From a virus (taxonomy: Duplodnaviria; Caudoviricetes): 64,000 nt of DNA. The position numbers and the translations under genes were made by a program. Shown one piece after another: positions 13,676-47,091 of the stretch (positions within the stretch are counted from its first letter, which is position 1; the number at the start of each line of letters is the position of its first letter). Below the pieces are notes generated by a model. That model was not told the DNA's origin. It saw only the letters and a list, made by a program, of their open reading frames with translations, and ran no database searches. The stretch covers positions 1-64,000 of IMG/VR virus record IMGVR_UViG_3300045580_000473; one strand, given 5' to 3'.

Positions 13676-13714
13676 GATAGCTAAAAAAAGCCGCCTAGGT
13701 GTTAAGTAGGCGGC
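13676..13714 (-). terminator. Terminator with conserved TTTTTTTAGCTATC tail (copy 1)
   Basis: GCCGCCTA/TAGGCGGC hairpin, T7, AGCTATC. Confidence 0.8.
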
Positions 13715-13736
13715 GAGAAACTAGCAGATGTTACAT

Positions 13737-13949
13737 TCAAACGGAACAAAGCCGTTGAACCCGGTGAGCGTCATACCAGCCGGCGTTCGGGAGTGGGGTA
13801 AGTGTCGGTCCTGTGATGCTTTCCGGTTTGAACATGACCAAATAAGATGGGGCGGCCCAGCGGCTCCCGGGATAAATATCAATAACCGTACCCCGCATCT
13901 TTTCATCGTCATCGAACGTAACAACAACACGATCGTTTTTCTTAATCAT
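13737..13949 (-). CDS. Small hypothetical protein (SH3/KOW-like beta pattern)
   Basis: MIKKNDRVVV...GTVIDI; GGAG Shine-Dalgarno. Confidence 0.5.
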   Translation of the reverse strand: MIKKNDRVVVTFDDDEKMRGTVIDIYPGSRWAAPSYLVMFKPESITGPTLTPLPNAGWYDAHRVQRLCSV

Positions 13950-13976
13950 GACGTGTAGCTCCAGAGGGTGAAAAAA

Positions 13977-14294
13977 TCAGCAGATGCCGGGGATGTGAAT
14001 TCCGGCCTTGGACGCGGCGTCACGGTGCTGGCGGAAAACACGCTGCCAGTACCGGTAGTCGTCAACCGCCCTTTTTTGACTGGCCGGCGAGTAGTCTTCC
14101 CCGAGTTCAGGCGTCCACTCGTACGACAAGGCAAGTTCCATTCTGGCCTCGGCGAGGTCATACTGCTTCTTCAGGTCGATGACGTTCTGCTTGAGAATCT
14201 GGTTGTGCTCCATTTTGTTGGCAATGAACTTGAGCACGACCAAGGCGATCACGAACACCAGCATGACGATCAGGAAAAACTGTTCGGCGGTCAT
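13977..14294 (-). CDS. Hypothetical protein with an N-terminal membrane anchor
   Basis: AGGAG Shine-Dalgarno; first gene after promoter motif copy 1. Confidence 0.65.
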   Translation of the reverse strand: MTAEQFFLIVMLVFVIALVVLKFIANKMEHNQILKQNVIDLKKQYDLAEARMELALSYEWTPELGEDYSPASQKRAVDDYRYWQRVFRQHRDAASKAGIHIPGIC

Positions 14295-14336
14295 GTATAT
14301 GACTCCTAGAGTGAATGGTTACAGGTCCCTTATTTG

Positions 14337-14365
14337 ATATGCCCGGATTATGTTGGTTATTTAGC
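14337..14365 (-). promoter_or_regulatory. Putative phage-specific promoter GCTAAA-N16-GGCATAT (copy 1)
   Basis: Five copies with an identical 16-nt spacer, each upstream of a gene start. Confidence 0.75.
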
Positions 14366-14373
14366 CGGACGCC

Positions 14374-14447
14374 GATAGCTAAAAAAAGGGGCGAGTTGTT
14401 GAGTTAGGCAGGCACTACAGCCTGTTTCTCCTCTCACTCACTCCCCT
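14374..14447 (-). terminator. Terminator with TTTTTTTAGCTATC tail (copy 2)
   Basis: Irregular GGGG...CCCC hairpin, T7, AGCTATC. Confidence 0.7.
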
Positions 14448-14637
14448 TTACTGCGGTTGACGTACGCAGCTTTACGGGCAATACCCTATGGCTTTCGCCC
14501 AAGGGTTCGGGACCACCTTGCTTTTTTGGCCGTCTTACGGGCTGTCCATCGGATATTACGTCCGGGGACCAACTGAGGGATAAGCAGAACCTCGCCAGAA
14601 ACCAAGAAACATTAAACCAACATTATCGGGTACAGCA

Positions 14638-15081
14638 TCAGAGGCTGTACCACTTACCGGCACCGGGCAGACCAATAAAGGTCTTCTGCTCGCCGTCACG
14701 GGTCGTCCACGTGGCAGTGGAATACACAACGCCCGGACGGACTTTCACGTCAGCCAGCCCCGTCTCGATCGCGATGTAGACGGCGTTCCGCTGGAAGAAC
14801 GTCGCCTCTGGATTCACGTCGATGTTCGCGTACTCGAACGTCTGCGGCGGAGGGACCACTGCAGCCGTTCCGCACGCCACCAGCACGAAGGCCACCAGCG
14901 GGGCCGCGATTCCGCAGGTGATCCGGGTCGCGAGGTAGGCCCAGTAGGATTCCGGGGCCACCTTGTCGACAATCCGGTAGAGCACCGTGGCGAACACGAA
15001 GTCGCAGGCAATCATCAGCAGGAACATGATCAGGGCAGCGGTCAGGATTGCAAACGTCGTCATTGGTTTTGTCCTCTTCAT
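14638..15081 (-). CDS. Hypothetical membrane protein
   Basis: Two hydrophobic helices followed by a soluble domain. Confidence 0.6.
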   Translation of the reverse strand: MKRTKPMTTFAILTAALIMFLLMIACDFVFATVLYRIVDKVAPESYWAYLATRITCGIAAPLVAFVLVACGTAAVVPPPQTFEYANIDVNPEATFFQRNAVYIAIETGLADVKVRPGVVYSTATWTTRDGEQKTFIGLPGAGKWYSL

Positions 15082-15130
15082 AAAAGTATCGAAACCATCA
15101 ACACCCAGCCGAACACACGTCGGCGGGGAA

Positions 15131-15191
15131 AGTCCGTGTGCAGGATTCGAACCTGCTCGGCACCTTGGGCAAGTGCTTTCCTTTCACGGAC
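15131..15191 (-). ncRNA. D-armless tRNA-like element
   Basis: Acceptor GTCCGTG/CACGGAC; perfect T arm GCAGG-TTCGAAT-CCTGC; anticodon-like arm GCAC-TTGCCCAAG-GTGC; D arm replaced by AAAGGAAA. Confidence 0.6.
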
Positions 15192-15199
15192 GGCTTTGG

Positions 15200-15445
15200 T
15201 CAGCCGGAGACGGGCTCCGCGATGACCGTGCCGTTGGACAGCGTGGCGTGCTGGTAGCGGCGGCGGGTCACGCCGTGCTCCCAGTCGAACCACGCCAGAG
15301 CACCCGTGTCATTGCCGACAAACTCGGCGAACGACTCCCGGACCGCGGCGAGACCGCGACCGGTGCCCACGACCTTGACGGTCTCGGCCAGCAGGCTATC
15401 GAACTGGGCGGCCTGCTCACGGGTAAAGGTGGTGTTGTTCTGCAT
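15200..15445 (-). CDS. Hypothetical protein
   Basis: GGAG Shine-Dalgarno before ATG at 15445. Confidence 0.55.
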   Translation of the reverse strand: MQNNTTFTREQAAQFDSLLAETVKVVGTGRGLAAVRESFAEFVGNDTGALAWFDWEHGVTRRRYQHATLSNGTVIAEPVSG

Positions 15446-15547
15446 GATAGAATCACTCCACAGCGACACAATTGAGTTAAAGTTCAACAGCCCTGTCGAA
15501 CCCCGGGCAGGGCACTACGTCGCGAATAGTATTCCCCTGCTTATTAG

Positions 15548-15577
15548 ATATGCCGTGGTTTTGCTGTTTATTTAGCT
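15548..15577 (-). promoter_or_regulatory. Putative promoter AGCTAAA-N16-GGCATAT (copy 2)
   Basis: AGCTAAATAAACAGCAAAACCACGGCATAT. Confidence 0.75.
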
Positions 15578-15596: not shown

Positions 15597-15626
15597 GATA
15601 GCTAAAAAAAAAGCCCCGAAGGGCTT
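15597..15626 (-). terminator. Terminator with TTTTTTTAGCTATC tail (copy 3)
   Basis: AAGCCC-TTCG-GGGCTT hairpin, T tract, AGCTATC. Confidence 0.85.
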
Positions 15627-15636
15627 CGGCTGGGGA

Positions 15637-15957
15637 CTAGCCGCGGGACAACCCACGGCAGCCGACGACGTTGCCAGCGTCGTCGCGGACGAGTTCCCCG
15701 GGGGCGAACACATCGTCCCGGTCGCTGCAACGAGCGGCGACCATCCCCGACACAACATAAACTGTTCCCCGCTTCGGGGCCGGAAGCCCCTCGACCTCGC
15801 CAAAGGAGGTCATCGACGTGGGAATGCCGTCGACCTCGGGCCCGGCGGCCCGAGTGGTGGCGACGCGAGCCACCGTCCCCGACTTTGCAATGACGCGAAC
15901 GTCACCAGCGGGGAGCACGATCTTGATGTCGTGCGGCGTCAAATTCGTAATCGTCAT
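15637..15957 (-). CDS. Conserved phage hypothetical protein (NLTPH family)
   Basis: NLTPH at the N-terminus, VVSGMV and RD..G.V.GC motifs; GGAGG Shine-Dalgarno. Confidence 0.7.
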   Translation of the reverse strand: MTITNLTPHDIKIVLPAGDVRVIAKSGTVARVATTRAAGPEVDGIPTSMTSFGEVEGLPAPKRGTVYVVSGMVAARCSDRDDVFAPGELVRDDAGNVVGCRGLSRG

Positions 15958-16335
15958 ATAAACCTCCAAAAAGAAACACGCAACGTAAACACGGACGTTG
16001 CACCCGTTTGCTCCCTGATGAGTGACGTGCTTGAGAGCACCAGCCCGGAAGTAAGCTTTCGCCTAAATCACATCCCAGCCGTTGAGCCGGATGTGCACCG
16101 TATCCAGCTTCTTGGCCAGCCGGCGGTTCAGCCGGTGGTTCAGCCGCTTGAGGAACTTGCGGCTCTTGGCCACACGGCGGGTCTGGCAGCGAAGGCTCCA
16201 ACCGCGATTCCAATCGGTCATACATACCTCCGTTAAAACAACAAAAGAACGCAACCAATCACCGCTGGTTGCATACGGGTGCACACAGTGAGTCACGTGC
16301 TCGTGTGCTCCAAGCCCGGTGTAGGTTCGCAAGAC

Positions 16336-16701
16336 CTACGGGGAGTCGCTGAGGCACGGCTCGACAATCCCACCGTGTTTTTCAATCACGGCTTCGACGA
16401 CCTCGACCGGCACGTATCCGTAGACCGTACCAGTGGCGTCGTCAGGATTCTCGGCGTACTCCATGAACTCTCCGACCCGTCGCGAGGGAAAGCCGATTTC
16501 GACGGCGATCCATGGCCCGACGCTATCCCGCGGCGTGCAGTAGTGCGTGACGCTCGCCTGTACGGAGAGCGTCAGCCCGTCGGCACACTCGATGGGAAGC
16601 ACCTGCCGAAAACGGTTCTTGGGCTCATCCAACTGGAAAGCCTTGAACTCTTCTCGGAGGTTTGCGGGGTCAAGCAGGTAGGCGTTGAGGTTAAACGCTA
16701 T
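16336..16701 (-). CDS. Conserved phage hypothetical protein (CADG..SVQAS..HYC.PR family); possible ATA start
   Basis: Family-like motif; frame stays open upstream of TTG 16632 to an ATA at 16701 preceded by AAGGA. Confidence 0.6.
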   Translation of the reverse strand: MAFNLNAYLLDPANLREEFKAFQLDEPKNRFRQVLPIECADGLTLSVQASVTHYCTPRDSVGPWIAVEIGFPSRRVGEFMEYAENPDDATGTVYGYVPVEVVEAVIEKHGGIVEPCLSDSP

Positions 16702-16770
16702 GGCCTGATCCTTCGAAGATGGCAGTCATACAACACAGGTGCCCGATGACTGCAAACCGGGGCACAGAGA

Positions 16771-16800
16771 ATATGCCACGGTATTGTTGTTTATTTAGCT
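16771..16800 (-). promoter_or_regulatory. Putative promoter AGCTAAA-N16-GGCATAT (copy 3)
   Basis: AGCTAAATAAACAACAATACCGTGGCATAT. Confidence 0.75.
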
Positions 16801-16814
16801 GGCGACCGACGGGC

Positions 16815-19424
16815 TTAGGGCACCGTGAGTGACACCAGATTCCCCGACGGTTCCGGCCCGCTGGATAAGCTAGACCATACAGATGCGGGCGGTTGTTCCG
16901 GCGGCGTGGCGGCGGTGGTGGCAAACTGGTTTGTCCAGAAATGAATTTGGGCGTCAGGCGTGTACGTGGGCAGAGCCCCGAGATTTTTTCCGATATACCA
17001 CGCGTCCGACAACAATATGCCGGCGTCAACCGCGGGCTGCGAATCGGCCCAATAGAGGTATGCAAACACGCCGCCTTGTGATTGGGTGGCAGGGCTTCGA
17101 ACATAGTACGGCTTGTCTTGGTACGTGCCCGCGTACGTGTAGATGCCGGCAACGTCCGAACTCGTTTGTGTGACAAGCACAAATCCGGGGTCCGGCGGCG
17201 GCAAGCCCGGCGTCGTCAATGTGGCCGCGTTGCTATACGCGAGGACTTGAACCTGCTCGCCGCCGCAGAAAATATAAGAATACACCAGACACCGCCATTT
17301 ACTCCAGTTATCGGCGTACGTTAAGCCTGAAAGTTGCAGCGTCGGTTGGGAGTACGTGGGCCCCTCCATCCAATCGGTCCACGTAACGCCGTTATCGTTG
17401 GATCGCTGCCATTGATAACTGAAACCATTTTGCCCCCCGAATCCGACAAAATTCTTTGTGGCCTGCACGGAAAAAGCCGCCGCGGACCCGATGTTTGTTG
17501 AATAGTTTGTCGGATGCTGGGTAATCGTCATCGTAGGCACCGGCACAGTCAGCGTCACGGCGTTGCTGGCGACACTGACCGAGGGGTCGAGCGTAGACGT
17601 GGCAACCACGCGGTAGAGGGCACCATTTGAAAGATTCGCCATTCCGGTGGGCGTCGCGTAACTGTATATCCACAGGGCGGCCGAGATGCCGCCGGCCCAG
17701 TAAGCGTCAGTCGTGGTTTGATACAGCCGGCCGTTGCTGATATTTGTCCAACTGACGCCATTGTCGCTTGACGTCTGCCATTGAAACGTTTGCGAGCCGA
17801 TGGAGACCGTGCTGATAGCCGAAAAAAGAGCCGCGTGTTCAGAAGAGTACGGAACTGGATTGTTGGGGGCGGTGGGGCCGTAGCAGGCGTCGAGATCAGC
17901 CGTGTCATTTTGCGGCTGGCTCGTGAATGTGATGACAGGCACTACCGGCGTACCACTGGCAGTTAAGGCGTACGGGCCAGTCCCCTGACTGTTCACAGCG
18001 GCCACTCTAAATAGATAACTCACGCCGTTTGTCAGACCAGTCACAACAGCAGAAGTTGTTGTTGAAACGCCGTCGTTAAATGTTGTCCACGTCGAGCCGT
18101 TGTTCGACGAGTATTGCACGACGTAATTAGTAATGCTGTATCCTCCCGTGTTCGTCGGAGCAGCCCACGACAAAATAACTTGTGCATCGCCAAACGTCGC
18201 ACTGAGGCTTGTCGGGGCGGCGGGTGTCGTTAATACCGTATCAATCTTTGTGCCATCCCACAGAGCCACATACGTGCTGTCGCCGAGCATGACAAACCTG
18301 TCATTGCCGTATGCGATAGCGTTGTGTTTGACGCTTGCGGCTGAAGTTGTCTGCGACGCCCACGTATTCCCATCCCGCGAACAAAAAATATTTGAACTAA
18401 CACCAGTTTTGTTGCCGACCGCGACAAAAAGGCCGCCACCGAACGCAAGTCCAGTCACGGTGGTCGCAAGTTGCACGGCGTTTTGGCCCCACTCCCACGT
18501 ATTGCCGTTCGTTGTGGTGGCCAAAACCCGCGACGTGGAGAGCGTGCCAGTTTCTACCGCGACCGTTTTGTTATTGCCGACCCGGTGGAGAAGCGTGTTG
18601 AAAGACATGCCGGTGGGTGCCGCAGTCGTTTTTCGCCAATCCATATTCGTAGCCGCAAAATACCATTGCCCGTCGTGATCCTGTACGAGCCATCCGTCTG
18701 GCGTAGATATCAGCGTGCCCCACGCCGGATAGAAGGGCGTGACGGTTTGAGTTGCGGGGTCGTAGAACGTGTTCTCACACATGCCGATAAGGCTGCCGCC
18801 AAAAGCCTGAGCAATTGGGGTATTTGTGGCGTTGGCCGGCGGAACAGCAAACAATTCCCCGGGCCATGTGGGCTGGTTCACGCTACTCGGTCTGTGCCGG
18901 GAAACTAACTTGTACGGGATGTGTGAGGCCGAACCCCAATTGGCTATAGAGCACCCGTTGGCGGAAAAATTAGTTTCAATCCATGTGATCCCGTCATATG
19001 AATAAGCCAGCACAAGCGTTGCGGACGAGTAAGCATACTGGTCGCCAATTACAGCAAATACGGGGGCGGCTCCGCTGCCGGCCATCATGCCGTAAGCCAG
19101 TGAGTAGCCGGTAGTTATACGCTTGTTAAACGTGTATCGGAGCGTCCACGTTATACCGTCAAAAGACGTATATAACTTTGTTTTTAAATTCGCCTCGTTC
19201 ATGCCGCCATAAAACGGCTCCAAGCCCATACCCACGAACTGGCCGTCGCCGAACACAACCCCGTACCACGCCACGTTGGGTTTTTGACCGACCGTCCAAT
19301 TCAATATTTTGTTAGACGACAGCCGCTCTTCGTACACGATATTTGTGCCGAGGTAGCCACTGGCTACTGTTTGCGTGCCCAGTTTTAAAGCGGCGGGTGC
19401 GGCAGTGCCGAAAAATGTGGGCAT
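16815..19424 (-). CDS. Virion adhesin/fibre-associated protein with propeller-like repeats, fibronectin III and Ig-like domains
   Basis: S.DG.TW repeats; FN3 signature (W.AP...GG..IT.Y.VQY...GL.NG..Y.FRV.AVN..G.G); Ig-like QP...YQWQ.S.DNG..W domains. Confidence 0.75.
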   Translation of the reverse strand: MPTFFGTAAPAALKLGTQTVASGYLGTNIVYEERLSSNKILNWTVGQKPNVAWYGVVFGDGQFVGMGLEPFYGGMNEANLKTKLYTSFDGITWTLRYTFNKRITTGYSLAYGMMAGSGAAPVFAVIGDQYAYSSATLVLAYSYDGITWIETNFSANGCSIANWGSASHIPYKLVSRHRPSSVNQPTWPGELFAVPPANATNTPIAQAFGGSLIGMCENTFYDPATQTVTPFYPAWGTLISTPDGWLVQDHDGQWYFAATNMDWRKTTAAPTGMSFNTLLHRVGNNKTVAVETGTLSTSRVLATTTNGNTWEWGQNAVQLATTVTGLAFGGGLFVAVGNKTGVSSNIFCSRDGNTWASQTTSAASVKHNAIAYGNDRFVMLGDSTYVALWDGTKIDTVLTTPAAPTSLSATFGDAQVILSWAAPTNTGGYSITNYVVQYSSNNGSTWTTFNDGVSTTTSAVVTGLTNGVSYLFRVAAVNSQGTGPYALTASGTPVVPVITFTSQPQNDTADLDACYGPTAPNNPVPYSSEHAALFSAISTVSIGSQTFQWQTSSDNGVSWTNISNGRLYQTTTDAYWAGGISAALWIYSYATPTGMANLSNGALYRVVATSTLDPSVSVASNAVTLTVPVPTMTITQHPTNYSTNIGSAAAFSVQATKNFVGFGGQNGFSYQWQRSNDNGVTWTDWMEGPTYSQPTLQLSGLTYADNWSKWRCLVYSYIFCGGEQVQVLAYSNAATLTTPGLPPPDPGFVLVTQTSSDVAGIYTYAGTYQDKPYYVRSPATQSQGGVFAYLYWADSQPAVDAGILLSDAWYIGKNLGALPTYTPDAQIHFWTNQFATTAATPPEQPPASVWSSLSSGPEPSGNLVSLTVP

Positions 19425-19431: not shown

Positions 19432-19471
19432 GATAGCTAAAAAAAAGGGGCGAACGAATTTTCGTTGCCCC
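19432..19471 (-). terminator. Terminator with TTTTTTTAGCTATC tail (copy 4)
   Basis: GGGGCAACGAA/TTCGTTCGCCCC hairpin, T8, AGCTATC. Confidence 0.85.
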
Positions 19472-19481
19472 GATTCTACCA

Positions 19482-20105
19482 TCAGTCCCACAGTCCGCGA
19501 AGGTACTTTCCAAAGAGGCACAGGCCGTTTTGGATGCGGTTTTCGTGGGCTTTCATGGCCTCGAAGTCGTAGGTCGTCCGGGCCATCATTTCGGTAAACG
19601 AGATGCCCGGCTCGTCACTGGGCTTGGCCGGGTCTTTGTCTTTACTGAACTGCCCAGCTTCGTCGCCCTTCTCGATCTGTTCCCACGCCCAGATCATTTC
19701 GTCGATGACCCAGTCCCACCGTTTAAAGTGATTATCATCGACGCCGCCGTAATTCTCCTGCTCTGGAGTGAGCGGCGGGGCAGATGTCGATCGCAGATGC
19801 TCGGGCACGTCGGCGTCGTCCACATATGGGGCTCCCTGCTTTGTCTTCTGGAGCATTTTGAGCATCGGCACGACGATGACGCTGAGCGTGGCATCCATGC
19901 TCCAGACGTCGTAATAATCAATGCGGACCTTGATCCGCCGCTTTCGGCGTTCGTCGATCCATTCGCAGACGGCCTTGAGCCACGTCTTGTTCAGCCACTC
20001 ACCGATCTTGTGGCAGCGGTCTTCGGAGACGCCGACGTACTGAAGCAAATCGGCAATTTGATAGGGGCCGATCCAACTTACGTAGGGGCCGAGATATACC
20101 TTCAC
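19482..20105 (-). CDS. Conserved phage hypothetical protein
   Basis: GTG start after AAGGAG; D.WSMD.TL...P.L and GL.LFGKY...LWD motifs typical of large-phage ORFs. Confidence 0.65.
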   Translation of the reverse strand: MKVYLGPYVSWIGPYQIADLLQYVGVSEDRCHKIGEWLNKTWLKAVCEWIDERRKRRIKVRIDYYDVWSMDATLSVIVVPMLKMLQKTKQGAPYVDDADVPEHLRSTSAPPLTPEQENYGGVDDNHFKRWDWVIDEMIWAWEQIEKGDEAGQFSKDKDPAKPSDEPGISFTEMMARTTYDFEAMKAHENRIQNGLCLFGKYLRGLWD

Positions 20106-20395
20106 GGTGCACTCCTTGCAGGTTTTTGAAACCGGGGGAACTGGTGCTTGCAGTCGGGGCACATCCAGTACGACACGCCGTCATAGTGATCAATGTGGTC
20201 GTACGGGAGTTCTACGCCGATGATCCGGCTGAACTTGTACGGCGGGGAATAGCACTGTTGGATATACGCCCGCAGTTCCTCGTCCGTCTTGTCTTTGGTC
20301 CAGTCTTGCGGGCGGAGCACGTCGAAGATGTCGCCGCCGTCCCAGCTAGCACTGCATTCGGGGCAGTTGCCGTGATGGTCGAGTTTAGTGGTCAT
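20102..20395 (-). CDS. Zinc-ribbon hypothetical protein
   Basis: CPEC...CPDC. Confidence 0.55.
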   Translation of the reverse strand: MTTKLDHHGNCPECSASWDGGDIFDVLRPQDWTKDKTDEELRAYIQQCYSPPYKFSRIIGVELPYDHIDHYDGVSYWMCPDCKHQFPRFQKPARSAP

Positions 20396-20754
20396 TGTGC
20401 GAAAGCTCCACAGCGAGGGCGTGAATGACAAGCTCGGCGACGTAGAGCCGATACTCGTCGTAAGGCCAGTTGATGAGTTGTTTTTGGTCTTCGTGCGGCT
20501 CGATGTCAAACATCGCCACGCCGTCGATCACGGACAGGGTGCACGAGAACTTGTTCTGGTCCAGCCAATAGCCGACTTCTTTAAGCCGGTCAAGCTGGGC
20601 ATCGTTTCGCACCCGACCGAGCAGGATATTAACAGAAAAACAGTCTTTGTCGTCGGCCATTGTGAGCGGCACCTCTGGGGGTAAAGACAACAATACCGAC
20701 CGGGTCGGGCTAGGTGGCGGTCCCTAGCCCGAGCCCGGAGTATAGCACGTGAGA

Positions 20755-21540
20755 TCAGACGTTACCGGCTGCGATTTGGCACACAGTCGGAGCAATCCGC
20801 TTGAAGCCGTCGACGATAACGGCATATTCGCTCGGCTTGCGGCCGGCTTGCGGCTTCTTCCGTTTGTCGTGCCGGCTCTCACGGCGGTTCAGAGGAAACG
20901 GCAAAAACCGAACCTCTTCATTCACGTCGAGCGGCCAATTCCCATAACGGTCAAACTGCCGCACAGCGTCGCGTAGCTTGGCCGGGGTCTCGTATTCTAC
21001 GATCCGATTTCCATTGTCGGAGTAGATTTTGCTGACGTATTTGCCCACGACAAAACCGTCAAGCAACCCGAAAAAGGAGCGGCGTAAAGCCATGGCCAAT
21101 ACACATTTGCGGCCGTCGCGAGTGGTGGCTTTAACGATATCAGACGCCTCCACCTTAAACTTCATCGGCTCGTTCGCCCAACCTACCCATTTCCCATTTT
21201 TCTGCTGCCGCCACGTAATAGGTTCGGGCGGATATTTAGAACGATCAATCTCGCGGAATTTCCGCGGTTTTGAACCGGTAGATTCTGGGCTCTTCTTGGA
21301 GCCCTTCACAACCGGGCTCGCGGGCTTGGCACCCTTGCCAAGCTTCTTGCGAGCCTTCTTCTTTTCCGCCCGTTCAGCAGGCGAAGGCACGTCCACCTTG
21401 GAATATTGTCCGGCCTTCCGGGACTTATCAGTCGACTTCTTTGCCGCCGATGACGGCTTCTTGTTCGTCGGCTTACGAGCGGACGACTTGCGGGAGTTAA
21501 CCCGCTTTGGCCCTTGCGGACCTTTGGCCTTCTTGGCCAT
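20755..21540 (-). CDS. Lys-rich (histone H1-like N-terminus) putative nucleic-acid-binding protein
   Basis: About 90 aa of K/S/A/R-rich sequence; C-terminal domain paralogous to ORF 21616-21996. Confidence 0.6.
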   Translation of the reverse strand: MAKKAKGPQGPKRVNSRKSSARKPTNKKPSSAAKKSTDKSRKAGQYSKVDVPSPAERAEKKKARKKLGKGAKPASPVVKGSKKSPESTGSKPRKFREIDRSKYPPEPITWRQQKNGKWVGWANEPMKFKVEASDIVKATTRDGRKCVLAMALRRSFFGLLDGFVVGKYVSKIYSDNGNRIVEYETPAKLRDAVRQFDRYGNWPLDVNEEVRFLPFPLNRRESRHDKRKKPQAGRKPSEYAVIVDGFKRIAPTVCQIAAGNV

Positions 21541-21615
21541 GTTGTTCTTCTCCGAAGTAGAACAGCCGGGTTAGGTTTTGACGCTAACCCGGCTGCGTGA
21601 ATTGGTGATTGACGT

Positions 21616-21996
21616 TTACCGACTACTCCGCTTTCTGTAGCGAAGCGAGTAGGGTTTAAACACAACAGGGCCCGCGACACCTACACGCCCGCTTTTGTCG
21701 TAGTCGACGATGGCGTCGCGTACAAAATTGGGCGTGCGGAACGCCACGGTCCGCGAACCGGGTGAACGACTTTTTGGCGAATGCACATAGAATTTCGTAG
21801 TGCAACGCCCGATTTCAACGCCATTAATCCATAAACCAAACTGATCGCGGAACGCCGCAAGCAGTTCGATTTTGTCGAAGACAACACCGGTTTCTTTCTC
21901 CGCGTCTATCTCCGTTAGTGAGCCGTTGAACTTGAACGCCTTGTTCGCAAAACCGGTTTTACGGTTTCGCCAAGTAATTGCCTTTGCGGTGGCCAT
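21616..21996 (-). CDS. Hypothetical protein, paralogue of the C-terminal domain of 20755-21540
   Basis: Shared ITWR..K.G and TP...RDA...[YF]D..G motifs. Confidence 0.6.
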   Translation of the reverse strand: MATAKAITWRNRKTGFANKAFKFNGSLTEIDAEKETGVVFDKIELLAAFRDQFGLWINGVEIGRCTTKFYVHSPKSRSPGSRTVAFRTPNFVRDAIVDYDKSGRVGVAGPVVFKPYSLRYRKRSSR

Positions 21997-22065
21997 GCCT
22001 ATGAACTCCTGTATTCGCGTGAGGAACCCGCGGCGACGTTGCCCGGGCTTAAAACTGACATAAAA

Positions 22066-22353
22066 CTAAGCCGCGGCGGGTTCGGGTTCGTCCTTACCCT
22101 GCAACGTATTCAACACGGTGTCGGCGTCGCCCAAGCAGGCAGCCGTCAGCAGAATGATCAGATGCGTGATCGAGAACTCGGTGGGCTCGGCCAGCGTCAC
22201 GCCGGGCATAGTGCCCTGCAGTTTGGCCGCCGAGCATTCAGACAATCGGAGCAGATGCGTGAGACTGATTGCCGTTCTCAGATCGTGGGCTGTCCCCACG
22301 AAATCGTCGGGTGCGTTGAGCTTGCCGCCGATGCAATAGAAGTTCAGTTCCAT
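22066..22353 (-). CDS. Hypothetical protein
   Basis: ATG at 22353, downstream of the tmRNA terminator. Confidence 0.5.
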   Translation of the reverse strand: MELNFYCIGGKLNAPDDFVGTAHDLRTAISLTHLLRLSECSAAKLQGTMPGVTLAEPTEFSITHLIILLTAACLGDADTVLNTLQGKDEPEPAAA

Positions 22354-22376
22354 AAACTCTGCTTTCGTTAGGGGAC

Positions 22377-22410
22377 AAAAAAAGCCCGGACAGCGAAGTT
22401 GCTGCCGGGC
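22377..22410 (-). terminator. Intrinsic terminator of tmRNA
   Basis: GCCCGGCAGC-loop-GCTGTCCGGGC followed by T7. Confidence 0.8.
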
Positions 22411-22419
22411 TATGAGAAG

Positions 22420-22766
22420 TGGAGCCGGCCGGATTTGCACCGGCGTCCGGCGATATATCCAACTAAAACGTCTACATGCGTAGCCTGTTGTGCTTGTCAG
22501 CAGGCAAACCAGTCGGACTCACCCGACAGCAGGTGGGCTACCACCATCTGTGCCTGTCTTTGCAGGCCGTCAGGCGTCTTTCCGCCGGTCCGCACGGTGG
22601 GCGATGATGCCGTGCCATCACCCGATCACTGCGTACTAGGCAGCGAGAGCGGGAGCACTGTTGAAAGTGCCAATTAACAATTTAATCGAGTTTTAACGTG
22701 GCCACCCGATCAACCACGGCATGCAGTCTTAATCTTCCTTATCCCGTCGAATCTAGAATCGGCCCC
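22420..22766 (-). ncRNA. ssrA: tmRNA, tag peptide GTFNSAPALAA (22671-22636)
   Basis: 5' GGGGCCGATTCTAGATTCGACGG; 3' T arm and CGGCTCCA giving an acceptor stem with G3:U70; internal tag ORF ending ALAA-stop. Confidence 0.93.
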
Positions 22767-22821
22767 TTGTTGCCACCCATTTTACGGCGATCCGAAGGCT
22801 GGGTAGCCCCACCAAAACTAA

Positions 22822-22895
22822 CGAGCACAATGGGACTTGAACCCACAACCTCCAGCGTGACAGGCTGGCGATCTAACCAATTGATCTATGTGCCC
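22822..22895 (-). tRNA. tRNA-Asp(GTC)
   Basis: Cloverleaf; anticodon arm CCAGC-CTGTCAC-GCTGG. Confidence 0.93.
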
Positions 22896-23279
22896 AAAAC
22901 ACAGTACGTCAGGTTTAGTGCTGCTTCTTTATCCTGACACGGCCGAGTATGAAGTTATCTCTGGCACTATACCGCTGTGTTTTTGTTTTGCAACCGTCGC
23001 CCCCGCTCTGGCCTAGGGCATGGAGCCCGCTGGTCACGTGGCACGTGACCGTTCAGCCAGAGCAGGGACGACGGAAGATCACATCCTACACATGGCAGGC
23101 GTGGCTGCCCAGATTATATGCGTAAAGTCACGCTTTGCGTTGCTTTTTGCATATGAAAAGCGTGGTTTATTCCGGTTGCACCACCACGAGGTTGTTTAAA
23201 CACCGGACCTTCTGCTGCTTGGTAGCGTTGTGGGGCAAAGCAGCCTGCACGCATCCCACGAACGTGCCCAATCGGGCAT

Positions 23280-23352
23280 TGACCCCACGGAGATTCGAAC
23301 TCCGGTTCCCGCCGTGAAAGGGCGGTGTCCTAGGCCACTAGACGATGGGGCC
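23280..23352 (-). tRNA. tRNA-Glu(TTC)
   Basis: Cloverleaf; anticodon arm CCGCC-CTTTCAC-GGCGG. Confidence 0.95.
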
Positions 23353-23356
23353 GCGA

Positions 23357-23656
23357 TCACCAGTCCTGCCAGTACATGTTCGCCCGCTTGATAGCGACGT
23401 CCATGTTCTTACGCCCGACTGGATTCGCGGAGTGTATCAGAACTTCCATCGGCGGGAGCAGCTTTTTATACGCCGCCTCTTCGATGAACTTGGCCACGTC
23501 ATAACCGGTTTTCTCTGACTCTTCGCCCAGATCGTGATCCAGCGAGATGCACGTCACAAGCCCTGTGCGAAGCGTGCGAATGGCCACGTCGGCGTCTTTG
23601 AGCCAGACGTCAAAATCATCCGGCTTTTCTCGGACATCATCGAGCCAGAGTCTCAT
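23357..23656 (-). CDS. Cyclic-phosphate-processing receiver (cREC)-like domain protein
   Basis: LWLDDVR, ISLDHDLG, GYDV and HSANPVG motifs. Confidence 0.8.
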   Translation of the reverse strand: MRLWLDDVREKPDDFDVWLKDADVAIRTLRTGLVTCISLDHDLGEESEKTGYDVAKFIEEAAYKKLLPPMEVLIHSANPVGRKNMDVAIKRANMYWQDW

Positions 23657-23990
23657 CGTAGTACGCCTTGTCCTTTTCTTTTAGTGATTCGAGGTGACGA
23701 TCTACAGCCGCAAACATCCATTCTCGAAGAGCAGTGCTGCCCTCTGATAGTTCCATGTCGTCAGGAATCGGCTCAAGGGCTTCAATCGGAACAGCGGTGC
23801 CATACGGAGCCCCGGTGTCCCAGTGATACTCTGTGGACAGGAACACGCTGCCGAACTTTTCACGCAGGCCGATAAAACCTTTTTCTTCTTCGTGAAAAAC
23901 GCCGAGACTGAAGTTTCGGCACGGGACGTAATACAACCATCGCGGCTTACAGTCGGCCAGCGGGATCATTCTAGGCGTTGGACGCGGCAT
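23637..23990 (-). CDS. Hypothetical protein
   Basis: RNF..GVF...GFIGLREKFG...EYHWD motif; tightly packed in the operon. Confidence 0.55.
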   Translation of the reverse strand: MPRPTPRMIPLADCKPRWLYYVPCRNFSLGVFHEEEKGFIGLREKFGSVFLSTEYHWDTGAPYGTAVPIEALEPIPDDMELSEGSTALREWMFAAVDRHLESLKEKDKAYYDETLAR

Positions 23991-24402
23991 CGGGATTCTC
24001 CTTGGCGTGAGAGATTTGCGGGAAACCAGTCGCCGCGAGCCATGCCGCGACCTTTTCAGGATTCAGTTCAAACAACACGCGAACTTTGAACCGCGGCTCT
24101 CCGACGCTGAGAATCATTACTGGCGGCGGATCAAACTGCTGGTTAGCAATCGTAAGCATCTCGCCGTGCTCGACCAGATTGGGCCAGTACTCTGAGCGTT
24201 CATAATTCCACAGGCTCGCCTCGTCAAACGCGACCGCGGCAACGAGGTCGGTGAGAGCGTTAAAGCCGAGTTTGTCTAACCCGTCCTGCGGATTGATAAA
24301 AGCACGCAGGTCGACCTCGTCTTCCAGCGTGACCTTTTTATCGGGGTGCACGGTCAGGAGCTTGGCGAACTTCTTGACCGTATATTTGTATTTCTTGTCC
24401 AT
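23971..24402 (-). CDS. Hypothetical protein
   Basis: GGAGG Shine-Dalgarno before ATG at 24402. Confidence 0.6.
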   Translation of the reverse strand: MDKKYKYTVKKFAKLLTVHPDKKVTLEDEVDLRAFINPQDGLDKLGFNALTDLVAAVAFDEASLWNYERSEYWPNLVEHGEMLTIANQQFDPPPVMILSVGEPRFKVRVLFELNPEKVAAWLAATGFPQISHAKENPDAASNA

Positions 24403-24545
24403 GTCGCCTCCGTGTAGAAAAAGGGCGGGCACAGCAGCCTTGGGCAAACTGCCATGCCCGCCCCAAAAAGACCCGCGGAAGTGAGCGTCGCACCGAGTTC
24501 CCCAGTTCGACGCCCCGCGGGTTTGCTACCGGGCCATGATGCACG

Positions 24546-25046
24546 TCAGCCGAGACTGGCGAGCGGTGCACCCGGTGTGTTTGACGGCATTTTAACGGTT
24601 GGTACATGTGCGGCATACAGAGCTTCAAATTCCATCAAAATTTCTTTGACTTCTTGGTATTTGTTTGCTGCTGCTTCTGCCGTGGCGTAACAACCAATGT
24701 AATGCGTTTTACCGTGTCTACAAACGGCAACGTGATACGGCCGAGACTTATACTCAGGCCGATATCGTACGCCGGGCGGCAAATCTAATTTTCTCCGCCT
24801 ACGTGTATTTCTCGTGTTAAGTGACACGGTAGCTGGTCGCAGATTTTCAAGCCTATTGTCGAGTCGGTCACCGTTGACGTGATCGAGCATTGGTGGCACC
24901 GTGCCATGCGTGAGTTCCCATACATAACGATGTAAACGAACTAAAGGATTTTTGCGACCATTTGGTCGGCCAACGGCGTATCCTTTTTGCACATACCACT
25001 TGCAACGCTCAAGCACCCACGAATATTCCGAATCGACTTTGATCAT
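24546..25046 (-). CDS. Free-standing HNH homing endonuclease with an AP2-like domain
   Basis: LHR...DHVNGDRLDNRLENLR, then PGV...YIG.Y.T.E.AA; ATGA overlap with the upstream gene. Confidence 0.9.
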   Translation of the reverse strand: MIKVDSEYSWVLERCKWYVQKGYAVGRPNGRKNPLVRLHRYVWELTHGTVPPMLDHVNGDRLDNRLENLRPATVSLNTRNTRRRRKLDLPPGVRYRPEYKSRPYHVAVCRHGKTHYIGCYATAEAAANKYQEVKEILMEFEALYAAHVPTVKMPSNTPGAPLASLG

Positions 25047-25420: not shown

Positions 25421-25491
25421 GCAATCCTCCGTGAAAGCCTGCCGGTGGTGTGCCCGGCAAAGATGTTTTTACGCCCCACACCGGGCGAGAA

Positions 25492-26104: not shown

Positions 26105-26108
26105 ATAG

Positions 26109-26182
26109 TAGCCGCAGAGGGATTCGAACCCCCGACCTTCGGTATGTAAAACCGACGCACTAACCAACTGTGCTATGCGGCT
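26109..26182 (-). tRNA. tRNA-Val(TAC)
   Basis: Cloverleaf; anticodon arm TCGGT-TTTACAT-ACCGA. Confidence 0.92.
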
Positions 26183-44521: not shown

Positions 44522-45451
44522 TCACATTCCGGTGGACATGACAGCCCGCTCGACCAGTAAAACGCAGTACTCGCGGTTATCATAAACATACTGAAAACCC
44601 GTCGTATGCACAAGATACAGTTTAGAGTCCTCGTTGATCTGGGCCGCCCACGGACGCTGATACGGGTCGTTTGCCGGCGGGAACCAACGAGCCGCATTTT
44701 GCTCAAAACGGAGATCGTAAATTAACACCATGAAACCGCTCTCTTCGAGCGAGTCATCGTTAATGGGCGAGGTTGACACGATAATGTCATGAAAAAACGC
44801 GGGAACGGTGCCGATGCCCTCTTTTTCAAAATAGACAAGCTTTTGTGGCGGACCACAGCGGACATTACTCGTCGCGGCTGTGCCAGCCACCTGCGTAGCA
44901 GGCGACTTCTTTTTTAAGCCAAACGCGGCCATGGGGCTGTAGCTTCGGTCGATCTTTTCTAGAGGTAACGCCGCAGGCACAGGAGGCGGCGTGATACGCC
45001 GGTTCATTTCCTCCTCCAGTTCCTCGACGATTTCTACTTCATCGTACTCTTCTTCCACGGCCTTTGGGGCCGGATTTGACCGGCGAACAGGAGTTTTCTG
45101 CACGCCAGACTTATTCATTTTTGCCAGTTCCTCAAATACCATGGCGGCTCGCTCCCTGATTGTGTCGATGTCGTCCCCGGGCAGTTGCTGCTCCGCAGCA
45201 GAGATTGCCGCGTTGACCCGGTCCTGTGTCATCTGGTCAAACCCAAGCGAATTAACGTTTTTACCTTCTGGGTCAATAATGTTAATTCGCACTTTCGACA
45301 TATCGTGCGGGTCGTAGTTGACCGGAGTGCCGCCGGCGGTCGCCTTTCCGACGACAACACCGCGGAGCCCGTATGGCCCGCGGCGAATGGCGTCGGCCAT
45401 TGTGCGGCCACTCTCCAGTTGCACCTGTGCCGGGTCCTGATATGTCGGCAT
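44522..45451 (-). CDS. Hypothetical protein
   Basis: 309-aa ORF; GAGG Shine-Dalgarno directly after terminator motif copy 5. Confidence 0.65.
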   Translation of the reverse strand: MPTYQDPAQVQLESGRTMADAIRRGPYGLRGVVVGKATAGGTPVNYDPHDMSKVRINIIDPEGKNVNSLGFDQMTQDRVNAAISAAEQQLPGDDIDTIRERAAMVFEELAKMNKSGVQKTPVRRSNPAPKAVEEEYDEVEIVEELEEEMNRRITPPPVPAALPLEKIDRSYSPMAAFGLKKKSPATQVAGTAATSNVRCGPPQKLVYFEKEGIGTVPAFFHDIIVSTSPINDDSLEESGFMVLIYDLRFEQNAARWFPPANDPYQRPWAAQINEDSKLYLVHTTGFQYVYDNREYCVLLVERAVMSTGM

Positions 45452-45461
45452 AAAAACCTCT

Positions 45462-45503
45462 GATAGCTAAAAAAAGGGGGGAGTGCTACATAGCACTTCC
45501 CCC
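45462..45503 (-). terminator. Terminator with TTTTTTTAGCTATC tail (copy 5)
   Basis: GGGGGAAGTGCT/AGCACTCCCCCC hairpin, T7, AGCTATC. Confidence 0.85.
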
Positions 45504-45779
45504 CAGAAAATCCTTCGGGCCGAGGGCGTCGCAAACGCTGTATAACAGATTCCGGGGAATCTGGAAATACAACCTGCCGAGTGGAATGCCGCTACCGCAA
45601 GCCGTCACGACGTGCTCTGCGGTCGGTATCACTTCAGCGACGACCCCGCCGGAAAGAAGGTGGGCCACCACCAAACCTGATGTTTCGTCTTCTGGGAAGA
45701 CGGGGAGTATGTGCGGCTCGACGTCGTGGTCGAGCAGCCAATTTAACACTGGTTTATCAGGTTTGAGGAAGAATCGCAT
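45486..45779 (-). CDS. Hypothetical protein
   Basis: Last ORF of the 47091-45462 unit. Confidence 0.55.
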   Translation of the reverse strand: MRFFLKPDKPVLNWLLDHDVEPHILPVFPEDETSGLVVAHLLSGGVVAEVIPTAEHVVTACGSGIPLGRLYFQIPRNLLYSVCDALGPKDFLGGSAM

Positions 45780-45784
45780 CGTGT

Positions 45785-46813
45785 CTATGCGTTTTCTTGC
45801 ACCACGGCCGGTCGGGTGCTGGACGGGGCCCAGTTATTCGGTGTTAACACCGTGCCGCTGTAATCGTCCGGCAGGTCATAGGCAGTTTCCATTGGGAACA
45901 ACTGCACTGCTGAAAGCCGGCTGATTCGCAGCGGGTTCGTCGGATTCTTGGCGGCAAGCAACAGGTCGTTGAATGACGCCTCCCAGCGGTACTTTGCCGG
46001 AAGCTCAGACCGCATGGCCAGCACGACAGCCTCGGGGGCGTACAACGTGGCTTCGTCACGCGGCAGCTTTACCGAGAAATAAGGCTTGCGAAACAGCAAC
46101 GCCTCTACCGCCGTCGCCCACTCCACGTCGAAATCCGGCACAGCCGCCTTAAACTCGACAACCATGTCTTCGAGTTCTGGCTGGCTGACGCCGAGCGGAT
46201 ACTCAATTCCGCGACGGGACAGAACCTTATCCGCAGGATTGGGCAATCGCACATCCACAGCCTCGATGAACTTGGCGGGATTGTCGACTTCAAAACCCAG
46301 CACCGAAGAATAGTCTTCGGCTACGATCCGACCGTTCTCGCGAATTGCGGTCGGGAAGCGGATCGGCTGCAGTTCTTCGTGCATACCGAAAGAAGCCCGA
46401 CGACCGTAGGCAGCGACTGCAGCAAGCAGTTCGTTTGCACGGCGAGCGAGCACGATGTTGTTCGCGGGAAGCGTCTTGCCGCCACCGCGAGGAGCGTATA
46501 CCAGCGAGATGTCGTAACTGAAGATGACCGAGTAGGCCAGCTTTCCGTTACGCGGGCGGCTGATGGCACCCGTGAAAGTCAGACTGTCTTCCTTCACTTC
46601 GAGCGTCAGCAGGGGCGGGCGTCGAAGCTTTCCAAGGGGCTTGATCGGGTTGTCAAACGTCTGGTCGATACCGGGGAGATAGAGACCGGCGGAAACACCA
46701 GTCAGATAGTGCGAAACATCATCGAACCGCTTTAGCAGTCGACGCTGTTGAGCGATAATAGAAGCGACTTTTTCGCTTACCTGCGAGTCAAGTTGTTCTG
46801 CTGCTATGGTCAT
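45785..46813 (-). CDS. Hypothetical protein
   Basis: 342-aa ORF with AAGGA Shine-Dalgarno. Confidence 0.65.
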   Translation of the reverse strand: MTIAAEQLDSQVSEKVASIIAQQRRLLKRFDDVSHYLTGVSAGLYLPGIDQTFDNPIKPLGKLRRPPLLTLEVKEDSLTFTGAISRPRNGKLAYSVIFSYDISLVYAPRGGGKTLPANNIVLARRANELLAAVAAYGRRASFGMHEELQPIRFPTAIRENGRIVAEDYSSVLGFEVDNPAKFIEAVDVRLPNPADKVLSRRGIEYPLGVSQPELEDMVVEFKAAVPDFDVEWATAVEALLFRKPYFSVKLPRDEATLYAPEAVVLAMRSELPAKYRWEASFNDLLLAAKNPTNPLRISRLSAVQLFPMETAYDLPDDYSGTVLTPNNWAPSSTRPAVVQENA

Positions 46814-46830
46814 TTGAATTGTGTCCTTAG

Positions 46831-47016
46831 TTACAGGCTACGAACGATGTCTTTACGCTTTACGTTCGCGTCGTAATACAGATTCGACTTTCCTGTTTCC
46901 CACTCTGTAGCTGTGACCACAAGTGGCGGTTTTGAATAGAACACCAAAAGAATCTTGTCATCGCCAATCTTTCGCTGCCGCTTGACCGCGGACCCACGAA
47001 ATGTAACAACACGCAT
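46831..47016 (-). CDS. Small basic hypothetical protein
   Basis: First ORF after promoter copy 5; purine-rich Shine-Dalgarno. Confidence 0.55.
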   Translation of the reverse strand: MRVVTFRGSAVKRQRKIGDDKILLVFYSKPPLVVTATEWETGKSNLYYDANVKRKDIVRSL

Positions 47017-47061
47017 ATGATCCCTTTCTTTACCCGCGAGAGAACACAGCGGGCGTACTAA

Positions 47062-47091
47062 ATATGCCGCGTTATTGCGAATAGTTTAGCT
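47062..47091 (-). promoter_or_regulatory. Putative promoter AGCTAAA-N16-GGCATAT (copy 5)
   Basis: AGCTAAACTATTCGCAATAACGCGGCATAT; the TAA stop of ORF 47086-47502 lies within it. Confidence 0.75.

Follow-up and report, generated by a model that had tools for sequence, protein, structure and literature searches.

Putative start and stop signals bounding short transcription units in an uncultured phage of about 200 kb

Two recurrent sequence elements, here called P and T, are probably the start and stop signals that bound short transcription units, each self-contained, in an uncultured phage of about 200 kb, and the joints between these units would double as recombination sites. The stretch analysed, referred to as the window, is 64,000 nucleotides long and belongs to a 123-kb fragment, from which some 40% of the genome is missing. 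The lineage is without close cultured kin (DNA polymerase at most ~27% identical to that of any cultured phage), nearly all genes lie on one strand and the G+C content is 55.8% (sd 2.9%, 1.2-kb windows). The system matches a variant of the PeSL-type (promoter-early stem-loop) cassettes and morons, and not transposon-like inverted repeats. A preliminary description of the window had listed five copies of each element alternating one to one. Pattern counts, shuffled sequences and folds bore out both sets of five, an independent repeat finder also returned the two motifs (repeats D1 and D2), and the alternation was confirmed. When the whole 123-kb record was scanned it extended, still perfect, to six P and six T, the sixth pair lying outside the window (P at 120672).

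Table 1. Coordinates of the putative promoters (P), the putative terminators (T), the units that they bound and one intervening gene
Feature	Coordinates	Strand	Description
P opening unit A	16771..16799	-	exact pattern match; fits 98-site consensus
Unit A	15597..16800	-	ORFs 16336-16632 (98 aa, phrog_24554), 16063-16221 (52 aa, basic), 15637-15957 (106 aa)
T closing unit A	15597..15626	-	hairpin, U9, AGCTATC
P opening unit B	15548..15576	-	pattern match; 20 nt beyond tail of T at 15597
Unit B	14374..15577	-	ORFs 15200-15445 (81 aa), 14638-15081 (147 aa)
T closing unit B	14374..14449	-	long imperfect hairpin, U7, AGCTATC; -28.3 kcal/mol, z -4.1
P opening unit C	14337..14365	-	8 nt beyond tail of T at 14374, the canonical T-N8-P joint
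Unit C	13676..14365	-	ORFs 13977-14294 (105 aa), 13737-13949 (70 aa), both ORFans
T closing unit C	13676..13714	-	hairpin, U7, AGCTATC tail
P opening tRNA/tmRNA island	28835..28863	-	abuts TGA stop 28864-28866 of glycosyltransferase gene
Large unit (tRNA/tmRNA island)	19432..28864	-	tRNA-Lys, Leu, Val, Glu, Asp; tmRNA 22417-22766
T closing tRNA/tmRNA island	19432..19471	-	hairpin, U8, AGCTATC; ATG of 869-aa gene 7 nt on
869-aa fibronectin-III gene	16815..19424	-	between tail of T at 19432 and P at 16799
P opening conserved three-gene unit	47062..47090	-	overlaps TAA stop (47086) of 138-aa gene
Conserved three-gene unit	45462..47091	-	genes of 61, 342 and 97 aa
T of three-gene unit	45462..45504	-	hairpin, U7, AGCTATC

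The promoter-like motif and its candidate reader

In the window P reads GCTAAAY-N6-CAWWANC-N2-GGCATAT in five copies, all on the minus strand, and the looser pattern GCTAAA-N14-18-GGCATAT gave exactly five matches, again all minus, and 0 in shuffled sequence. The pattern was carried by 58 IMG/VR stretches. Related phage contigs yielded 98 distinct sites, and their 36-nt logo shows a conserved TG and two boxes separated by 16 nt (consensus gCTAAATa....gcAAAA.c..GGCATATt.a.TG). The bases 5′ of CTAAAT carried almost no information in this logo; the initial A of AGCTAAA lies outside the conserved motif and was found at 41% of the 98 sites, and position 14365 itself reads GGCTAAA. Five complete relatives had 3-6 P per genome (up to 2 mismatches); the gene strand carried every copy and the other strand 0, and the P at 28863 keeps its position in 17 of 18 relatives.

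As part of the overall explanation, and with the same fair degree of confidence, we read P as a putative promoter of sigma-70-family geometry whose upstream box does not fit the housekeeping −35 box. Its boxes, CTAAAT and GGCATAT, are separated by a 16-nt spacer that includes the conserved CAAAA.C, and the conserved T-purine step 5-6 nt beyond GGCATAT would be the likely transcription start. A simple sigma-70 scan recovered none of the P sites, and the CTAAAT box is not TTGACA-like. Since housekeeping-type sequences (TTGAC-N16-17-TAnnnT, judged by eye) are present in other intergenic gaps, P appears to be a class apart.

The reader of P would most likely be the host core RNA polymerase with an alternative sigma factor. 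Of the two proteins that the preliminary description had proposed to look for, a sigma factor or a recombinase, a divergent sigma protein of ~270-280 aa was found in 10/10 near-complete relatives, its gene being absent from this 123-kb fragment. A tyrosine or serine recombinase was not found in the 123-kb record or in 8 complete relatives, in a search that covered the Phage_integrase and Resolvase families. The relatives' sigma protein matched Pfam Sigma70_r3 with 38.3 bits (cut-off 25.3) and phrog_351, "RNA polymerase sigma factor", and its residues 88-267 align to SigA chains; it is not assignable to the FliA or SigB families, for which the best NCBIfam matches fell far under the cut-offs. 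The promoter consensus is CTAAA-N16-CCGATAT for sigma-28/SigD and GTTTAA-N12-15-GGGTAT for SigB/SigF. With such group-3 alternative sigma promoters P shares a TAAA-type upstream box, a spacer of ~16 nt and a G/C-led downstream box ending in ATAT/TAT (some relatives' P sites read GGGTATAT), but its GGCATAT box fits neither consensus. A sigma homologue (39-44% identity) is present in two distant phages, G045 and G053, in which the P motif is absent. The clade-encoded sigma factor is the best candidate for the reader of P and may play this role, a weak link that we infer.

The terminator-like element and its tail

Within the window there were exactly 5 occurrences of the T motif TTTTTTTAGCTATC, each on the minus strand (13676, 14374, 15597, 19432, 45462); with up to 2 mismatches there were 9 matches against 0.25 expected. 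One near-match, at 5295-5308, was rejected as a terminator; it lies inside a signal-peptide coding region. All five window T fold into a G+C-rich hairpin abutting a tract of U7-9, with energies of −14 to −28 kcal/mol and z values of −3.1 to −4.1, the exception being −1.4 for 15604-15650. This arrangement, a G+C-rich hairpin and a direct U tract, is the one expected of intrinsic terminators and was found at 5 of the 6 T elements of the record; the sixth, at ~120113-120127, is degenerate, with a long hairpin and then TTTTCCTTAGCTATT. At 14 sites orthologous to the T at 45462 the stem sequences differ and are all self-complementary, while the U tract and the tail are unchanged.

That the sequence conserved beyond the U tract is unusual, as first noticed in the window, holds in relatives and in more distant phages. 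Among 132 strong hairpin-plus-T6 sites in relatives, 39 carry AG[CA]TAT[CT], and every other 7-mer occurs at most 2 times. In this record the tails are confined to P-unit ends, and the other terminators of the genome are without them. The tail AG(C/A)TATYAG is also found in more distant phages without P, the same 9-mer being kept across phages whose proteins are only ~30-50% identical. We therefore regard T, again as part of the whole explanation and with comparable confidence, as a putative intrinsic terminator with the conserved tail AG(C/A)TATYAG, a downstream box that would be kept by selection for some function. This conserved word is the most unusual part of the system, and textbook intrinsic termination does not explain it. 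Telesnitsky and Chamberlin are said to have reported in 1989 that the sequence just downstream of the U tract matters in the early terminators of T3 and T7. The likeness is that sequence 3′ of the U tract would play a part in a hairpin terminator; the difference is that the T3/T7 effects are tied to no single conserved word, whereas here one 9-mer is kept.

The units

Units A, B and C are stacked as first described. The two stop codons said to be overlapped by an opening motif are the TGA at 28864 and the TAA at 47086, and the two genes said to start close behind AGCTATC do so after 7 and 10 nt; in the second case, after the T at 45462, a Shine-Dalgarno sequence and the ATG of a conserved 309-aa gene both fall within 10 nt. 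Unit B also holds a tRNA-like piece (15132-15191) and a 250-nt non-coding tail, and the large unit a DUF3800-VIII RNA match and ~20 small ORFs. The 98-aa protein of unit A has homologues in P units at other genome positions in the relatives G001 and G005. The 869-aa gene sits inside a stretch that in most relatives is just one T-N8-P joint, and its own promoter is absent; the conserved three-gene unit is flanked by the 138-aa gene and by genes of 309 aa and 643 aa. Genes that start right after T, such as the 869-aa and 309-aa genes, would be expressed by read-through, and those terminators would therefore be leaky or conditional.

The notion of accessory islands was sustained in part. Units A-C and the 869-aa gene are extra DNA without counterparts in G001, G003 and G005, but two units, at 47091-45462 and at 120 kb, keep their place throughout the clade, and an accessory character is not obvious for them. 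The G+C content of the units (51-59%) does not depart from that of the genome, and a compositional sign of foreign origin is absent.

Exchange of units among relatives

The arrangement hairpin-Un-AGCTATC-N8-P, seen in the window at 14374/14365, is the rule in relatives; of the 21 P sites preceded by a tail, 13 stand exactly 8 nt from it. Eighteen relatives have in common the layout [P, tRNA island, T][P..T]n, running from the glycosyltransferase gene to a DUF6321 gene; in them this interval spans 7.7-15.2 kb and contains 2-5 small units, mostly ORFan, most of whose proteins are unique to one genome. Alignment of relatives, the check proposed at the outset, gave whole-unit differences with breakpoints at the motifs: unit-sized indels of 3.1 kb, 510 bp and 550 bp are each bounded by T motifs at both ends. 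Homology ended within 15 nt of a motif in 109 of 308 cases against 21.9 expected, a five-fold excess over the prediction from position alone, to be read with the caveats that the ends are not independent and that clustering at gene borders is expected anyway. It is thus supported by these comparisons that relatives apparently gained or lost whole units with breakpoints at the motifs.

In the mechanism we propose, T and P in the variable region behind the tRNA/tmRNA island would be fused into a joint of ~55 bp, tandemly repeated, which would insulate each unit. The repeats would also supply homology through which the phage recombination system (the gene of a UvsX-like recombinase lies at 56057-57433) could add, delete and swap units; PeSL cassettes of T4-type phages are believed to operate in this way. 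As for the cassette or moron system first suggested, the self-contained moron-like units and the breakpoints at motifs stand, and recombination at AGCTAAA inverted ends does not.

Alternative explanations

A possible but unlikely alternative is that P is the late or middle promoter of the clade and the T elements are attenuators setting protein ratios in long one-directional operons, so that the units would be strongly expressed promoter-proximal operon parts and not accessory, with shuffling as a side effect. Every P lies in the structural half of the genome, with none in the replication module, and just 3-10 P per 200 kb suits few long operons. Essential conserved genes, namely the 309-aa gene (with the 643-aa portal-like protein) and a 157-aa gene, begin 5-11 nt after T; no other promoter is visible for them, and read-through is therefore required. 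A core phage sigma factor, moreover, usually drives a late class, as with T4 gp55 and SPO1 gp33/34. These points are offset by ~80 kb of G003 (17-95 kb, sigma gene included) without any P, by a promoter-proximal content made mostly of tRNAs and fast-evolving ORFans and not of recognisable major structural proteins, and by the 342-aa unit protein, which is among the least conserved in its neighbourhood.

It is improbable that the T run and the AGCTATY box form a start or restart signal (an UP-like element for P, or a promoter of the downstream gene) instead of part of a terminator. A hairpin and a U tract precede every examined box except the degenerate 120-kb site, where the hairpin is 25 nt off, the U tract is broken and four genomes keep TTTYCCTTAG(C/A)TATY immediately 5′ of a conserved gene. 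The 8-nt spacing to P in 13/21 joints would place the T run at about −60 to −50, the zone of UP elements, and TATAAT-like hexamers follow the box in distant phages; however, the interval that separates the box from the following promoter-like hexamer or ATG ranges from 5 to >50 nt. In the orthologues of the T at 45462, a well-spaced Shine-Dalgarno sequence stands between the box and the ATG, and the transcript therefore begins at or before the box.

Two further proposals relied on a sequence common to P and T in opposite orientations. Across the clade this sequence shrinks to CTAAA/TTTAG, and its T's are just the U tract of the terminator. A longer inverted repeat was found at 9 of the 98 P sites, mostly owing to TGA/TAG stop codons, and the complete relative G001 has 0 AGCT in 198 kb (~511 expected) and keeps the whole system with AGATATC tails and ACTAAAT boxes. 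It is accordingly very improbable that one phage factor binds AGCTAAA in both orientations, starting transcription at P and stopping it at T. CTAAA(T/A) is indeed present in opposite orientation at both elements in every examined genome, G001 included (TCTAAAA on the opposite strand of its tails), and the restriction of tails to P-unit ends in this record agrees with such a factor; yet the match beyond the U tract adds 2 nt (AG/CT), a 1-in-16 coincidence, the remaining TATYAG is without counterpart at P, and the tail is present in distant phages that are without P. Mobile cassettes ending in the terminal inverted repeats (A)GCTAAA...TTTAGCT, with a recombinase or transposase dedicated to moving them, are largely refuted: the inverted 6-7-mer at the ends of all five window units, the unit-sized indels and the 98-aa homologues at different genome positions speak for them, but the clade-wide repeat is no longer than stated above, no integrase or resolvase was found in the genomes searched, the indels end on direct repeats of T and not on inverted ends, and two units have a fixed position throughout the clade.

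Comparison with known systems

The preferred reading, putative start and stop signals with recombining joints, was compared with the PeSL cassettes of T4-type phages (Arbiol et al. 2010, PMC2839356; Comeau et al. 2014, PMC4122927). Both systems have a composite of terminator stem-loop and promoter, repeated in direct orientation and clustered in a hyperplastic ORFan-rich region adjoining tRNA genes; in both, whole gene blocks differ between relatives with breakpoints in the motif, a dedicated recombinase is absent and a UvsX-type recombination system is phage-encoded. They differ in that the PeSL promoter is a host sigma-70 early consensus and here it is the clade-specific CTAAAT-N16-GGCATAT, in the conserved downstream box of 9-13 nt, not described for PeSLs, and in the two units that belong, fixed and conserved, to the structural region. 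The phage is also of an unrelated lineage.

The morons of lambdoid phages, additional genes that bring a promoter and a terminator with them (Cumby, Davidson & Maxwell 2012, PMC3594210), resemble the units in lying between genes of a conserved operon, with signals of their own (here putative), and in abutting or overlapping the ends of neighbouring genes. Unlike them, the units have the same G+C content as their surroundings, all use one promoter/terminator family and belong to a virulent-type huge phage without integrase; expression from a repressed prophage is therefore not the rationale for them.

Implications

For a widespread clade of ~200-kb phages that are uncultured and without a cultured relative, these results name candidates for a promoter class, a terminator class and a sigma factor, three testable handles on gene timing in these phages. 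The PeSL principle, in which repeated regulatory joints are recombination sites for swaps of small genes, would be extended to an unrelated lineage and to a promoter that is not of host type. Considering the tail, we tentatively suggest, as a doubtful possibility, that AG(C/A)TATYAG is the recognition site of a conserved phage or host factor that makes the terminators conditional. If this is true, each terminator would be a switchable insulator, closed to read-through into the structural genes downstream during one stage of infection and open to it during another, and the box would be a control element common to a broad group of uncultured huge phages, many of them without P. The word after the U tract could in this way point to a new layer of termination control.

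The Phage Record and Its Relatives

The record has a length of 123,273 bp, its first 64 kb being the window, and its completeness was estimated at 60% (CheckV, whole record). Nearly all genes are carried by the minus strand. No close cultured phage was detected by megablast and tblastn against cultured phages, and the best identity of the DNA polymerase to any of them was about 27% at most. Its relatives are represented by uncultured contigs of about 200 kb, direct terminal repeats being present in several; the closest complete one, G001, is collinear with the record, with protein identities of about 60–90%.

Features of the window, the record, and a related phage
Feature	Position	Strand	Remarks
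tRNA-like piece, unit B	15132-15191	-	7-bp acceptor-like stem, GGTTCGAATCC T-loop
869-aa fibronectin-III gene	16815-19424	-	flanked by the tail of T19432 and by P16799
tmRNA	22417-22766	-	Rfam 111.9 bits; not called by ARAGORN in the window
tRNAs Asp, Glu, Val, Leu, Lys	22821-27963	-	same P-to-T unit as the tmRNA
DUF3800-VIII RNA, borderline	22997-23071	-	Rfam 40.5 bits versus a gathering score of 40.2; within the tRNA island
Group-1 glycosyltransferases (two)	28864-29988; 41376-42416		amid structural genes
Tail-fibre proteins, collagen-triple-helix repeats	32243-34516; 36472-38541	-	757 and 689 aa
Replication genes	record		family-A DNA polymerase, primase, helicases
Recombination/nuclease genes	record		UvsX-like recombinase, SbcCD-like nucleases
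Terminase and tail-fibre genes	record		large terminase, the two collagen-repeat tail-fibre proteins listed above
RNA genes	record		the five tRNAs and the tmRNA listed above
Divergent sigma-70-family protein	L225:1459-2298	-	locus in relative G003; core gene of the clade

Paired Motifs and a Candidate Sigma Factor

The promoter-like motif P (GCTAAAY-N6-CAWWANC-N2-GGCATAT) had 5 matches in the window versus 0 in shuffles, and the element T (hairpin, T7-9, and an AGCTATC tail) had 5 exact matches and, with up to two mismatches, 9 versus 0.25 expected. Both were found where the preliminary description had placed them, far beyond chance, and the one-to-one pairing described there extends to the whole record, which reads P T P T P T P T P T P T along the transcribed strand; the sixth unit is opened by a P at 120672 and closed by a degenerate T near 120113-120127. 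A near-match to T at 5295 was discarded, as it falls within a coding region.

Scanning IMG/VR with the P pattern gave 58 stretches, nearly all of which have an extended consensus in common. The logo obtained from 98 distinct sites, gCTAAATa....gcAAAA.c..GGCATATt.a.TG, has two boxes separated by 16 nt, and its T-purine step, also conserved, would be -1/+1. Judged by its sequence, this geometry is that of a sigma-70-family promoter, though the upstream box differs from TTGACA. Five complete relatives carry 3–6 copies each, on the gene strand in every case. Considering that housekeeping-like sequences (TTGAC-N16-17-TAnnnT, read by eye) are present in other intergenic gaps of the record, P forms a separate class. 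Among bacterial genomes there was one match to P, in a Clostridia MAG, which gives no host lead, and a literature search for the motif words returned chance matches only.

A candidate phage sigma factor was found in the relatives but not in this fragment. The candidate, of about 270–280 aa, is encoded in 10/10 near-complete relatives examined; it scores above the Pfam cut-off for Sigma70_r3, has a weak region-4 helix-turn-helix, and can be aligned to SigA structures; a PHROG sigma family is matched as well. Homologues occur in G001, G002, G004, G005, G018, G019, G022, G024, G028, G045, and G053, while in the 60%-complete record the gene was not found and neither Sigma70_r2 nor Sigma70_r4_2 had a match. 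We infer that P may be read by the sigma factor of the clade. In more distant phages it is kept at 39–44% identity and the P motif is absent, so that co-occurrence leaves the link between the two unsettled.

The Predicted Terminator and Its Tail

By hairpin folding, the five T elements of the window are textbook intrinsic terminators. In 14 orthologues of T45462 the inner stems differ (GTGCTA/TAGCAC, GCGCTA/TAGCGC, GCGAT/ATCGC, CGGCC/GGCCG, and others) and are self-complementary in all, with U tract and tail unchanged. These compensatory changes, read directly from the sequences, point to hairpins that are selected as structures.

The logo of the tail is AGCTATCAGcgcT, the box being also written AGCTATCAG. 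That sequence is conserved beyond the U tract, as first noticed in the window, was borne out in the relatives, where AG[CA]TAT[CT] follows 39 of 132 strong hairpin+T6 sites and every other 7-mer occurs at most twice. Clean terminators elsewhere in the genome, such as 6363-6437 and 97485-97567, are devoid of it, and therefore in this record the tail accompanies the P units. It was also possible to see TTTTTAGCTATC(AG) after canonical hairpins in distant phage records without P, in several strand-consistent copies (five in G042, four in G045, three in G051, three in G052, and five in G053); the reversed-motif control found none in distant phage records. Taking into account its presence in these P-less phages, the tail is older and more widespread than P, and its distribution points to selection for a role connected with the terminator. 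Three functions were discarded: a -10 box or leaderless-mRNA promoter, by the well-spaced Shine-Dalgarno sequence downstream of the tail; pairing with a trans-acting RNA, by the transcribed strand, which shows no conserved complement; and an IHF site (TATCAR), by the conserved T spacing, which on inspection of the logo does not fit WATCAANNNNTTR.

The Variable Region and Its Units

One layout was found in 18 relatives for an interval of 7.7 to 15.2 kb bounded by a glycosyltransferase gene and a DUF6321 gene. The glycosyltransferase gene is directly followed by P, then tRNA-Lys, Leu, Val, and Glu, usually a tmRNA, small ORFs, and T; the next P lies 8 nt past this island-closing T (rarely 9 or 16), and 2–5 short P..T units come after it. 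The window has the same layout with one peculiarity, the joint between T and P being split by the 869-aa fibronectin-III gene. This gene has neither its own promoter nor a clear Shine-Dalgarno sequence and has no counterpart in the relatives: a related-locus search with the protein returned nothing, and only its FN3 domain recurs there. ARAGORN called a tmRNA in 11 stretches from the relatives, and ALAA ends 8 of the tags (for example, GTFNSVPALAA and GAHAPALAA).

The unit proteins are mostly confined to a single genome; PHROGs and Pfam gave almost no matches for them, and the AlphaFold model of a 342-aa unit protein had a pLDDT of 51, too low to use. Units A (15597-16800) and B (14374-15577), both of 1204 nt, were considered as duplicates and rejected in view of their lack of protein similarity; the equal length is probably a coincidence. 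The tRNA-like piece in unit B, with no ARAGORN call and only tRNA-Sec in Rfam (21 bits, E 0.72), is perhaps a tRNA that has decayed or been truncated. In unit A (15970-16340, minus strand) AGCACGT(G/C)ACTCA(C/T) is common to two intergenic stretches, and after it come a hairpin (GCAAC..GTTGCG), a run rich in T, and a ribosome-binding site; these stretches may serve for internal attenuation or for processing.

The accessory character attributed to all units does not hold for two of them, one at 47091-45462 and the other close to 120 kb, which occupy the same place in G001, G003, and G005 and in many contigs whose proteins are only about 50% identical. In these conserved units P overlaps or closely trails the end of the upstream gene and T abuts the start of the next one. 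The genes past their T's are conserved (309-aa, 643-aa, and 157-aa, with an atlas lead, no more than that, to a portal for the 643-aa gene) and have no other visible promoter; therefore, transcription has to pass the terminators of the conserved units at one stage or another. The alternative in which a late or middle class would be driven by P, with T as an attenuator, is thereby kept alive.

Unit Exchange and Comparison with Known Systems

Comparison of relatives showed gain and loss of units with breakpoints at the motifs. G036 lacks 3.1 kb (two P units) present in G004, and homology ends at one T and restarts at the start of the next. A 510-bp unit of G019 is missing from G003, whose single T aligns with both flanking T's, and a 550-bp unit of G002 is missing from G004, the break being again at a T. 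Within the array, seven genomes compared as 21 pairs gave 308 homology ends, which are not independent of each other; 109 of them lay at most 15 nt from a P or T motif, versus 21.9 expected from position alone. Gene borders attract homology breaks anyway; what matters is the five-fold excess at the motifs, not a p-value.

The terminal inverted repeats (A)GCTAAA...TTTAGCT, at whose ends recombination had been postulated, did not hold up: the shared part shrinks to CTAAA/TTTAG, and the T's of this word are the U tract of the terminator. Of the P sites, 41% have the A of AGCTAAA, and further upstream the logo is uninformative; the longer inverted match ATA[GT]CTAAAT occurs in 9/98 sites, mostly created by TGA/TAG stop codons. 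Where about 511 AGCT would be expected in its 198 kb, G001 has none, and it keeps the whole P/T layout, with AGATATC as tails and ACTAAAT in its P sites where others have aGCTAAAT. No integrase or resolvase was found in this record or in 8 complete relatives; a UvsX-like recombinase is encoded by the phage.

A single 4-bp palindrome is wholly avoided per genome, AGCT in G001 and GCGC in this record (0 versus about 618 expected in 123 kb; in the window, 0 versus 601 in shuffles), probably as an escape from AluI-type and HhaI-type restriction, respectively. This avoidance accounts for local motif spellings, namely, AGAGCC for AGCGCT in this record and, in G001, AGATATC and ACTAAAT.

Homology breaks at motifs have been described for promoter-early stem-loop (PeSL) cassettes of T4-type phages (PMC2839356, PMC4122927), which the unit exchange at P and T resembles. 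The PeSL cassette is the closest known system, morons being a broader concept (PMC3594210). Specific to this system are a non-housekeeping, clade-specific candidate promoter, a core phage sigma factor as its possible reader, and a conserved word past the U tract that extends across a much wider phage group.
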